A stretch of 64,000 nucleotides of DNA from assembly GCF_030013595.1 (NCBI RefSeq), contig NZ_CP122770.1. The stretch is one strand, 5' to 3'. This stretch comes from Escherichia coli. GTDB lineage: Bacteria > Pseudomonadota > Gammaproteobacteria > Enterobacterales > Enterobacteriaceae. The notes beneath the pieces were generated by a model, which was not told the origin of the DNA, did no database searches, and saw nothing but the letters and a program-made list of their open reading frames with translations. A program made the position numbers and the translations under genes. This document shows positions 13,698 to 15,045 of this stretch, piece by piece (positions within the stretch are counted from its first letter, which is position 1; every line of letters begins with the position of its first letter).

Positions 13698-15045
13698 CAC
13701 CCGTGACTGCTCCCCGCCCTGTCGGGCGAGGCTTCCCACTTCTCAGGCCGCAACCGTCTGTGCGACGGATTTACGCTGGCCTCCATGGGCAGAGACGACG
13801 AGTCCCGCCGCCTTTAGTTCCAGTATTCCTTTTTGCCGGATGTTGAGTGCTGCATTGATATCGCGCTCGTGCTCTGCTCCACACTCATGGCATCGCCAGA
13901 TGCGTTTATGAAGTGGCATTTCCGGCATTTTGTAACCACAACAATGGCACGTTTTCGAACTGGCAAACCACTGGTCGAGTTTTACCAGGTGAACGCCTTT
14001 TGTCGCTGTCTTGTACTCCAGCTTTGTGATGAAGCTGTGCCAGCCTGCATCACCTATCGCTCTTGCCAGATTGTGGTTTTTCATCATGTTGGCTGTTTTC
14101 AGCGTCTCCACAATTACCGCTTGGTTTTCGTCAACAATTGCACGAGAGAGCTTGTGTTGAAAATCAGCACGGGCATTCGCCACCCGTTCGTGTAAGACCG
14201 CAAGACGGATTCTGGCCTTTTTACGATTCGCGCTTCCCTTTTGCTTACGGGATAATGCTTTTTGTTTGCGTCGCAGATTACGACCTGCATTGATGAGATG
14301 GCGAGGATTCGGAACTTTTACAGCATCAGAAGTGATGGCATAGTGCTCCAGTCCCATATCCAGACCTGTAATCTTTTCTTCCTTCAGGTACGTGGGTTTC
14401 TCTGGTGCGGAAGCGCCATCGTCACAAAGAATGGAAGCGTAGTATTTCCCCGTTGCAGAACGGGTGACAGTGATGCTTTTCAGCTTTCCATGAAGTTCAC
14501 GATGAAGGCGTGCTTCTATCGGGGCCAGTTTGGGGATTTTGATGGCATTATCCTGCACCTTAATCCCGACACAGTGATAGCTCGATTGTTTTCCGTGTTT
14601 GCGTTTAAACGTCGGGAACCGGGCTTTCAGCTTCGGATTAAAAAAGTTGGAAAATGCCACATCAAGATTGATTACCGCCTGTTGCAATGCCATTGAGTCA
14701 AATTCTTTGAGCCAGGCATATCTGCGGGACTTCTTCGCCACAGACAACAACGGTTTTAAATCTTTACGCGGACTTAAATTCACTCCGTGTCGCTGGTAAG
14801 CGTGTTTTTTGATGTGAAGAGCTTTGTTGTACGCAAAACGTACCGCACCGAACTGGGCGTTGAGAAATGCAGCCTGTTCAGGAGTAGGATAGATGCGTAT
14901 TTTTGTTGCTCTTAACATAGTCACCGCTCATTGGTACAGGTTTTTATGCTAACACCGTAATAATATTTTTAAAGCCCTTCGGGCTTTTCCGCCTTTCCTC
15001 CCCACCCGCATTGGGCGAGGGTTCTCGGCGGCTTTTCGCTGATTT
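13698..15045 (-). mobile_element. IS200/IS605-family tnpB-only element (IS1341-like), boundaries approximate
   Basis: TnpB ORF flanked by hairpin motifs ctcccc(g/a)ccc-N4/5-gggcgagg; flanks match a third site at 44729-44800. Confidence 0.6.
13743..14924 (-). CDS. tnpB: TnpB (OrfB) RuvC-like RNA-guided endonuclease
   Basis: 393 aa, N-terminal [16 protein letters not shown]-terminal zinc finger CHCCG...CHECG. Confidence 0.85.

Follow-up and report, generated by a model that had tools for sequence, protein, structure and literature searches.

Insertion sequences (ISs) of the IS200/IS605 family, and the RNA-guided nucleases encoded by their tnpB genes, are the closest described systems to the locus reported here. 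Transposition of IS608 is said to follow a single-strand 'peel and paste' route, reportedly worked out by Barabas (2008) and Guynet (2009), and ISDra2 uses the target motif TTGAT. For TnpB, the guide corresponds to the flank 3' of the right end of the element, and the transposon target motif serves as the transposon-associated motif (TAM), a rule summarised by Mears et al. (Baym lab), who showed by experiment that TnpB lets IS-bearing plasmids displace IS-free ones and gives conjugative plasmids an 'anti-self defence', with the remarks that natural guides were not identified and that location in the leading region and orientation may matter (bioRxiv 10.1101/2025.02.20.638934). We analysed a stretch of 64,000 nucleotides (hereafter the window) of the Escherichia coli contig NZ_CP122770.1, in which an IS with a tnpB gene lies between ardA and psiA, and compared it with these systems. 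ColIb-P9 and hundreds of further plasmid records already list the gene as encoding a TnpB-family RNA-guided endonuclease, and the finding itself is ordinary; the useful output is the exact anatomy, i.e., the ends, the target motif, the scaffold, and the guide. Plasmids ColIb-P9 (with the insert) and R64 (without it) represent a natural, ready-made test case for a TnpB drive of IS-bearing plasmids, and the element sits in the early-expressed leading region that the authors of the drive idea flagged as potentially important.

Ends, hairpins and affiliation of the element

The top strand of the element is the minus strand of the window, and its end structures are as follows (loci used for comparison carry numbers beginning with L).

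13703..15038, minus strand: whole element, 1336 bp, with the left end at 15038 and the right end at 13703; tnpA-less relative of ISEc46
15039..15042, minus strand: TCAG target tetranucleotide and predicted TAM, adjoining the left end
15000..15020, minus strand: left-end subterminal hairpin CCTCGCCC-AATGC-GGGTGGGG, 18 nt from the left-end boundary
14971..14988, strand not assigned: small GC hairpin AAAGCCC-TTCG-GGGCTTT, from comparison with L008
13712..13731, minus strand: right-end subterminal hairpin CCTCGCCC-GACA-GGGCGGGG, 9 nt from the right-end boundary, also the last scaffold helix

The boundaries were drawn by comparison with 80 loci encoding relatives at 59-82% protein identity, which came from Photorhabdus, Serratia, Idiomarina, the Halomonas group, and others. 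On the tnpB strand, the right end reads ...GGGGAGCAGTCAC in nearly every related locus (70+, with a few single-base variants), and the flanks past it are unrelated among these loci, which sets the right end of the window copy at 13703; there it closes in GTCAC, a pentanucleotide that is invariant at the right end across genera. Left ends of the sister subtypes, which represent independent insertions, consist of a flank ending in TTAG, then C(G/A)AAAA...GCCGTAAAC and the hairpin, while those of the present subtype consist of a flank ending in TCAG, then CGAAAA..GCCGAGAAC and the hairpin. TCAG stands 5' of the left end in all five copies of the subtype (the window, a P1-like plasmid (L003), phage RCS47 (L094), the 44.7-kb site described below, and L006), and TTAG holds this position in about 20 insertions of sister subtypes, plus one TGAG, with otherwise unrelated flanking sequence; GTAAAC in the left-end spacer accompanies TTAG, and GAGAAC in the spacer accompanies TCAG. 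This recurrence in independent copies places the left end of the window copy at 15038 and the TCAG at 15039-15042. The match of the P1-like plasmid copy (90% identical) to the window is confined to 13703..~15044, and this copy and many relatives have exactly 13703..15038 in common before they diverge. When the left end was used to look for further copies of the TCAG subtype, nothing but the known IncI1 insertion came up, and RCS47 provided one more context.

The hairpin motif CTCCCCRCCC-N3-6-GGGCGAGG has exactly three matches in the window (13710-13731, 14998-15020, and 44747-44769; hereafter sites A, B, and C), compared to none in 100 shuffles. At the two ends of the element, the hairpins share the form CCTCGCCC-loop-GGGYGGGG on the minus strand (15020-15000 and 13731-13712), and the right-end hairpin shows compensatory changes (e.g., CCTC..GGGG to CATC..GGTG). 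The termini, CGAAAAGCC... and ...GCAGTCAC, do not form inverted repeats, and there is no target-site duplication; together with hairpins 18 and 9 nt from the ends, these are hallmarks of the IS200/IS605 family. An initial reading of the bare sequence (the original prediction) had proposed a tnpB-only element of this type between ardA and psiA with hairpins on both sides of the gene, which is borne out by the TnpB profiles, the ends, and the lack of tnpA, the hairpins being the subterminal end structures of the element; its coordinates for the first hairpin (13708-13732) were right to within 2 bases, while those for the second (15007-15031) were about 9 bases too high.

Alternatively, the GC-rich hairpins, of which this plasmid has three that are nearly identical, might be ordinary backbone repeats of IncI1 plasmids (terminators or repetitive extragenic palindromic-like sequences), with tnpB merely lying between two of them. 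We give this hardly any credence: the insert-free IncI1 plasmids L001 and R64 are without both hairpins at the locus, the hairpins travel with tnpB in P1-like plasmids, phage RCS47, E. coli chromosomes, and genomes of Photorhabdus, Idiomarina, and the Halomonas group, and site C is in accessory DNA rather than in the backbone, which resumes at 44890.

No tnpA was detected in the 64-kb window by tblastn with the TnpA of a related chromosomal copy (best E 0.35). Relatives L008, L012, and L015 carry tnpA; in L008, a chromosomal copy, the gene is divergent from tnpB, and its product is labelled by the Prokaryotic Genome Annotation Pipeline (PGAP) as 'IS200/IS605-like element ISEc46 family transposase'. 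In full-length relatives, the small GC hairpin follows the stop of the divergent tnpA, and in the window the hairpin at 14971-14988 is the only leftover of this region, with no tnpA between it and the start of tnpB. The presence of tnpA in relatives and its absence here make the window copy a non-autonomous derivative. All testable features of the IS200/IS605 family were found except tnpA, and it is very probable that 13703-15038 is a non-autonomous insertion sequence of this family, belonging to the ISEc46 clade, with intact tnpB, ends, and scaffold. We also considered the plus strand as top strand, with a GTGA target at the left, and rejected it on the orientation of tnpB and the scaffold, the 18- and 9-nt distances, and the invariant GTCAC of the right end.

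Like IS608, the element has subterminal hairpins on one strand, no inverted repeats, no target duplication, and insertion 3' of a tetranucleotide, and its left cleavage site is also farther from the hairpin (18 nt) than its right one (9 nt). In the TTAG subtype, the four nucleotides before the hairpin (AAAC) fit the position-by-position pairing rule of IS608; when the rule was applied to the change from TTAG to TCAG, AAAC/TTAG fitted, but GAGAAC/TCAG could not be made to fit without a bulge. ISEc46, as represented by PGAP-labelled E. coli chromosomal copies and by RCS47 according to its authors, has the same gene, hairpins, scaffold, and right end (...GGGGAGCAGTCAC), and the RCS47 copy additionally has the left end and the TCAG of the window element. 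The organisation of ISEc46 is of the IS605 type with divergent tnpA and tnpB, whereas the window element is without tnpA, and its left-end spacer has GAGAAC instead of GTAAAC, with TCAG instead of TTAG as target. Identity to copies labelled ISEc46 is only 79-81% in nucleotides and 82% in protein, and the ISfinder convention for the same IS is roughly ≥95% protein or ≥90% DNA identity. Judged by these values against the copies labelled by PGAP or in RCS47, and by its different target tetranucleotide, the window element is not ISEc46 itself.

Several related loci deserve mention in their own right. Copies without tnpA are common, and they are multicopy in Photorhabdus thracensis (NZ_CP011104; 13 loci listed, L020-L033), where the left-end hairpin is about 100 bp from tnpB, leaving no tnpA, and several left ends are truncated. 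One genome of Idiomarina loihiensis (NZ_CP074112) has eight relative loci listed (L050-L085), and L074 shows a tandem partial left end. In plasmid pE200139_78 (L011, 2501-2894), the 3' 300 bp of tnpB and the right end adjoin a truncated rci, the shufflon recombinase gene, next to pilV, which gives this element family a second insertion site, a degraded one, in IncI-type plasmids.

The TnpB protein and the RNA structure at the 3' end of its gene

The coding and RNA features of the element are given below.

14924 to 13743 including the stop, minus strand: tnpB open reading frame (ORF), 393 codons from GTG at 14924, or 391 aa from ATG at 14918 (PGAP)
13703..13813, minus strand: predicted scaffold of the guide RNA (omega RNA), with five helices across the 3' end of tnpB and the right end
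13813-13807/13799-13793 and 13789-13785/13739-13735, minus strand: scaffold helices 1 and 2
13781-13775/13751-13746 and 13768-13764/13758-13754, minus strand: scaffold helices 3 and 4
13731-13724/13719-13712, minus strand: scaffold helix 5, the right-end hairpin

The tnpB product scores 340 bits with the NCBIfam model guided_TnpB (cut-off 100), contains the Pfam domains HTH_OrfB_IS605 (PF12323), OrfB_IS605 (PF01385), and Cas12f1-like TNB (PF07282), and matches the ISDra2 TnpB structures 8H1J/8BF8/8EXA with an E of 1e-75. The catalytic triad is intact, with D189/E273/D355 aligning with ISDra2 D191/E278/D361, as is the zinc ribbon (two CxxC motifs, at residues 326 and 345). A nuclease-dead TnpB derivative (a TldR-type regulator) was rejected on account of the intact triad and the position of the gene between transposon ends. 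Ratios of nonsynonymous to synonymous substitution (dN/dS) against relatives were 0.05-0.17, and by this measure purifying selection acts on TnpB throughout the family; within this plasmid lineage selection is not measurable, given that the copies are 98-100% identical. The ORF is annotated as intact in 30 of 30 plasmid records among those listed, and in four further tnpB+ plasmids.

For the RNA, we aligned the last 175 nt before the right-end boundary from 45 loci that were <93% identical to one another. RNAalifold predicted 34 pairs for these loci, 18 of which had compensatory double changes. Within the five-helix core, 97.3% of cells were paired versus 83.0% in shuffles, and the covariation score of the core was 0.452 versus 0.185, a value reached by none of 500 shuffles; pairing fell to 35-53% when partners were slid by 1-3 columns. 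The minimum free energy fold of the window sequence itself contains the same helices (z = -2.6), all of which are intact, and the frequency of G-U pairs indicates a structure specific to the tnpB sense strand. Judged from this covariation, the structured RNA at the tnpB 3' end, which the original prediction had anticipated, looks like a TnpB guide-RNA scaffold. The likeness to ISDra2 covers a full-length homologous protein, a predicted scaffold that overlaps both the end of tnpB and that of the element, and a predicted guide taken from the flank, and the difference is in the target motif (TCAG/TTAG for the group of the window element versus TTGAT for ISDra2).

The predicted guide and the alleles of IncI1 plasmids

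With the right end at 13703, the TnpB rule gives the guide and, in other plasmids, the following counterparts.

13683..13702, minus strand: predicted guide GGGTGGTCTGGAGGTCATGC, flank 3' of the right end, placed by the ISDra2 TnpB paradigm
tnpB-insertion allele, example ColIb-P9 (NC_002122): 169 PLSDB records, and 74 of 5426 complete E. coli genomes
segment of 630 bp carrying a 198-aa ORF that is translationally coupled to psiA, example R64: the occupant of this site in most IncI1 plasmids, well over 1000 records
8044-8047 in each of L096 (R64), L101, and L102: tri-allelic last base of the predicted TAM, corresponding to the base just left of window 13703

The guide so derived (reverse complement of 13683-13702) differs from that of the original prediction, the reverse complement of 13701-13717, which is sequence of the right end and scaffold and matches site C because site C contains a right end. 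The guide flank, GGGTGGTCTGGAGG..., occurs only once in the window with up to 3 mismatches allowed, and this sole occurrence is preceded by GTCAC and not by TCAG, so that the plasmid is without the predicted target; the proposal that one plasmid holds both the nuclease and its predicted target thus fails. On the minus strand of R64, L001, and L100, by comparison, TCAG is directly followed by GGGTGGTCTGGAGGTCATGC, and this R64-type allele (TCAG+GGGTGGTCTGG...) was found as an exact 40-mer in 1058 PLSDB records. By sequence, R64-type plasmids carry the predicted TAM and a perfect protospacer, where TCAG would be the TAM of this TnpB according to the insertion-site rule and published TnpB biology.

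That the window belongs to an IncI1-type plasmid is shown by the repZ pseudoknot (47388-47536, Rfam), and matching records have nikA/nikB, ardA, psiA, psiB, and ssb around the locus. The 198-aa ORF of the alternative allele (WP_000978012, starting MMKSDEQYQ) is at 1908-2537 in L001 (NZ_CP023356) and at 8100-8696 in R64 (L096), and had no significant match in NCBIfam or Pfam. The 630-bp segment is bounded on the minus strand by two TCAGs, the second of which is directly followed by GGGTGGTCTGGAGGTCATGC, and the window lacks exactly the DNA between them. The search of related IncI1 plasmids for an insert-free locus, which the original prediction had suggested, found no clean empty site but the 630-bp segment with its ORF, and no PLSDB plasmid that combines the element with the 198-aa ORF turned up in a junction query.

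Among insert-free IncI1 plasmids, the final base of the predicted TAM is tri-allelic, with exact 40-mers for TCAG in 1058, TCAA in 163, and TCAC in 42 PLSDB records, although database records are not independent of one another. This variation could be escape from the ColIb-P9-type TnpB or plain lineage polymorphism. A C-to-T change at protospacer position 13 is common to one tnpB+ plasmid (pKPNH54.2, L097, ~6676) and one insert-free plasmid (L102, ~8031), by which guide and target vary together in some lineages. In their flanks, tnpB+ plasmids form no separate clade, as differences per kb are alike within and between groups out to 6 kb; within 900 bp, tnpB+ and insert-free plasmids are not told apart by any site, and alleles of ArdA, PsiA, and PsiB are shared. 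Such flank haplotypes, common to both groups within <1 kb, are compatible with spread by recombination.

We hypothesize that transcription of tnpB runs the same way as that of psiB-psiA-ardA, and that the 3' part of the transcript would fold into the scaffold and run on into the flank, giving the guide GGGTGGTCTGGAGGTC...; the TnpB-RNA complex would then cut DNA in which TCAG precedes the guide sequence. The replicon of the element would be spared, with GTCAC before the sequence, and R64-type plasmids, which match exactly, would be cut, such that the element would act as a gene drive or as a competitor weapon against insert-free sister plasmids. As in the drive of Mears et al., a conjugative plasmid bears the IS in a conserved region and has a (here predicted) guide matching an IS-free variant next to a (here predicted) TAM; that study used engineered ColE1, pSC101, and F constructs, while here the pair is natural, of the IncI1 type, and known by sequence alone, and the IS-free R64-type allele, unlike theirs, is not a simple empty site but carries an extra 630 bp. 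The sequence data show the family identity, the boundaries, an intact TnpB ORF with its catalytic motifs, the conserved RNA structure, and the match to the other allele, while expression, guide length, TCAG as TAM, and cleavage are predictions, and we put forward a drive or weapon function only tentatively.

The setting in the leading region bears on this hypothesis. Genes ardA, tnpB, psiA, psiB, and ssb are co-oriented, and nikA/nikB and oriT are on the ardA side, from which we infer that the transferred strand would be the template of these genes and that the guide would be complementary to the strand that enters the recipient first. Early expression of IncI1 leading-region genes, driven by single-strand promoters, is documented (PMC12672017, PMC11541004), and a hairpin promoter 5' of ardA was reported in IncI1 pESBL (PMC12672017). 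Between the right end and ardA, the window has a 32-nt inverted repeat (13331-13362 / 13538-13569, 88% complementary, 175 nt apart), which is probably the hairpin-type single-strand promoter of ardA.

Several observations weigh against a drive or weapon. The promoter scan found no sigma-70-like site upstream of tnpB, and transcription would thus depend on read-through from psiA. L002 (NZ_CP036203) has the same insertion with an internal tnpB deletion of ~610 bp (1337/1331 junction, equivalent to window 13828-14439) and both ends kept, which indicates that the gene is dispensable. Rfam, at gathering and at permissive thresholds, gave no guide-RNA family at the locus but only chance-level matches, so this check of the original prediction drew a blank. 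Close relatives use TTAG, and TCAG as TAM follows from the insertion-site rule only. Relative to R64 the insertion is not clean, with 630 bp absent and no intermediate detected, and ordinary recombination between plasmids could also account for the shared flank haplotypes. Finally, entry exclusion and incompatibility of IncI1 plasmids limit meetings of the two alleles.

The element might instead be an inert passenger, i.e., an immobile fossil without tnpA whose TnpB and guide are unexpressed or without effect and which hitchhikes on ColIb-P9-type backbones. The lack of tnpA and of a promoter-like site, the tolerated deletion in L002, and the near-identity of the lineage copies, in which selection is not measurable, all agree with this. 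Against it stand the ORF kept intact in the plasmid records above, the intact catalytic triad, zinc ribbon, and scaffold helices, the low family-wide dN/dS, and the occurrence of the allele on several flank haplotypes common to insert-free plasmids, and we consider an inert passenger rather unlikely. Returning to the drive or weapon hypothesis, its fullest form, in which a working system in the leading region targets ~1000+ R64-type plasmids (TCAG+GGGTGGTCTGG...) and the tri-allelic TAM base reflects escape, seems to us improbable.

The 44.7-kb site and other features of the window

The third hairpin of the window belongs to a short feature on the same strand.

44740..44787, minus strand: solo remnant, 48 bp, composed of 18 nt of left end, a single hairpin with a left-end-type loop, and the right-end tail ...GGGGAGCAGTCAC
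44788..44791, minus strand: TCAG adjoining the left end of the solo remnant

From 44791 to 44740 on the minus strand, site C consists of TCAG, then CGAAGAACCGCCGAGAAT-CCTCGCCC-AATGC-GGGCGGGG-AGCAGTCAC. In a three-way alignment, it joins the left side of hairpin A to the right side of hairpin B, with GTGACTGCTCCCCGCCC common to sites C and A (17/17) and GGGCGAGGRTTCTCGGCGG... common to sites C and B, and past 44740 and 44791 its surroundings do not resemble those of the 13.7-kb locus. This fused architecture, including its loop type and the adjacent TCAG, recurs in an E. coli chromosomal prophage region (L006, 2503-2550). Because the stretches shared with sites A and B are element termini that occur in unrelated contexts, site C represents a remnant and not an empty target. 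It differs from the full copy of the window at 3 of 31 left-end positions and is thus no recent derivative of it. On this sequence evidence, site C is a 48-bp fusion of the two ends of another copy of the subtype and has no function in the guide/target system.

The original prediction had seen in the 44.7-kb copy the outer flanks of both hairpins, as expected for an uninterrupted target or a deletion product, with nuclease and target together on the plasmid. The copy does join the sequence left of hairpin A to that right of hairpin B, but these stretches are inside the element; the actual flanking sequences disagree (GGGTGGTCTGG at 13.7 kb versus CGGAGTCTTCG / CGGAGTCTTC... at site C), the guide is without a second site in the window, and the left ends differ as stated. 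An uninterrupted target or empty donor site at 44.7 kb is therefore scarcely conceivable, and of the two options offered, the deletion product is the nearer one.

How the remnant arose is a separate matter. Rather than a deletion in place, site C could be a mobile miniature element moved in trans by a TnpA, comparable to palindrome-associated transposable elements (PATEs) or miniature inverted-repeat transposable elements. The same fused architecture and loop type in a second context, both next to TCAG, speak for mobility. Only a handful of site-C-like copies were found (two contexts examined, few chromosomal matches), however, and a deletion between the 8-10-bp direct repeats in the hairpin arms would yield an identical product each time. 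Moreover, neither a clean empty site nor a full-length element at site C was found, and in the nearest relative, L005, divergence sets in 5 bp ahead of the remnant and covers a stretch of 55-155 bp. Like PATEs and solo-end remnants, site C has end sequences and a hairpin but no coding capacity, and it differs from PATEs in that one fused hairpin stands in place of two ends and in that very few copies were found. We regard a mobile miniature element as conceivable, without favoring it over a remnant of deletion in place.

Site C lies in accessory DNA next to yacB. This AT-rich accessory segment (43465-44889) contains a hexapeptide acetyltransferase-like ORF (43465-44331) and a 113-aa ORF (44352-44693), and it is present in only ~73 PLSDB plasmids, as similarity to most other records begins at 44890 with yacB.

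Two further features were identified elsewhere in the window by Rfam. Group II intron domains at 19706-19855 and 21928-22004 (D1-D4-7, 121.7 bits; Intron_gpII, 55.2 bits) point to a group II intron in the leading region, and an ltrA reverse transcriptase lies close to ssb in the related plasmid L099. A C4 antisense RNA (77.5 bits versus a gathering threshold of 45) is located at 48389-48476 on the plus strand, ~1 kb from the repZ pseudoknot.

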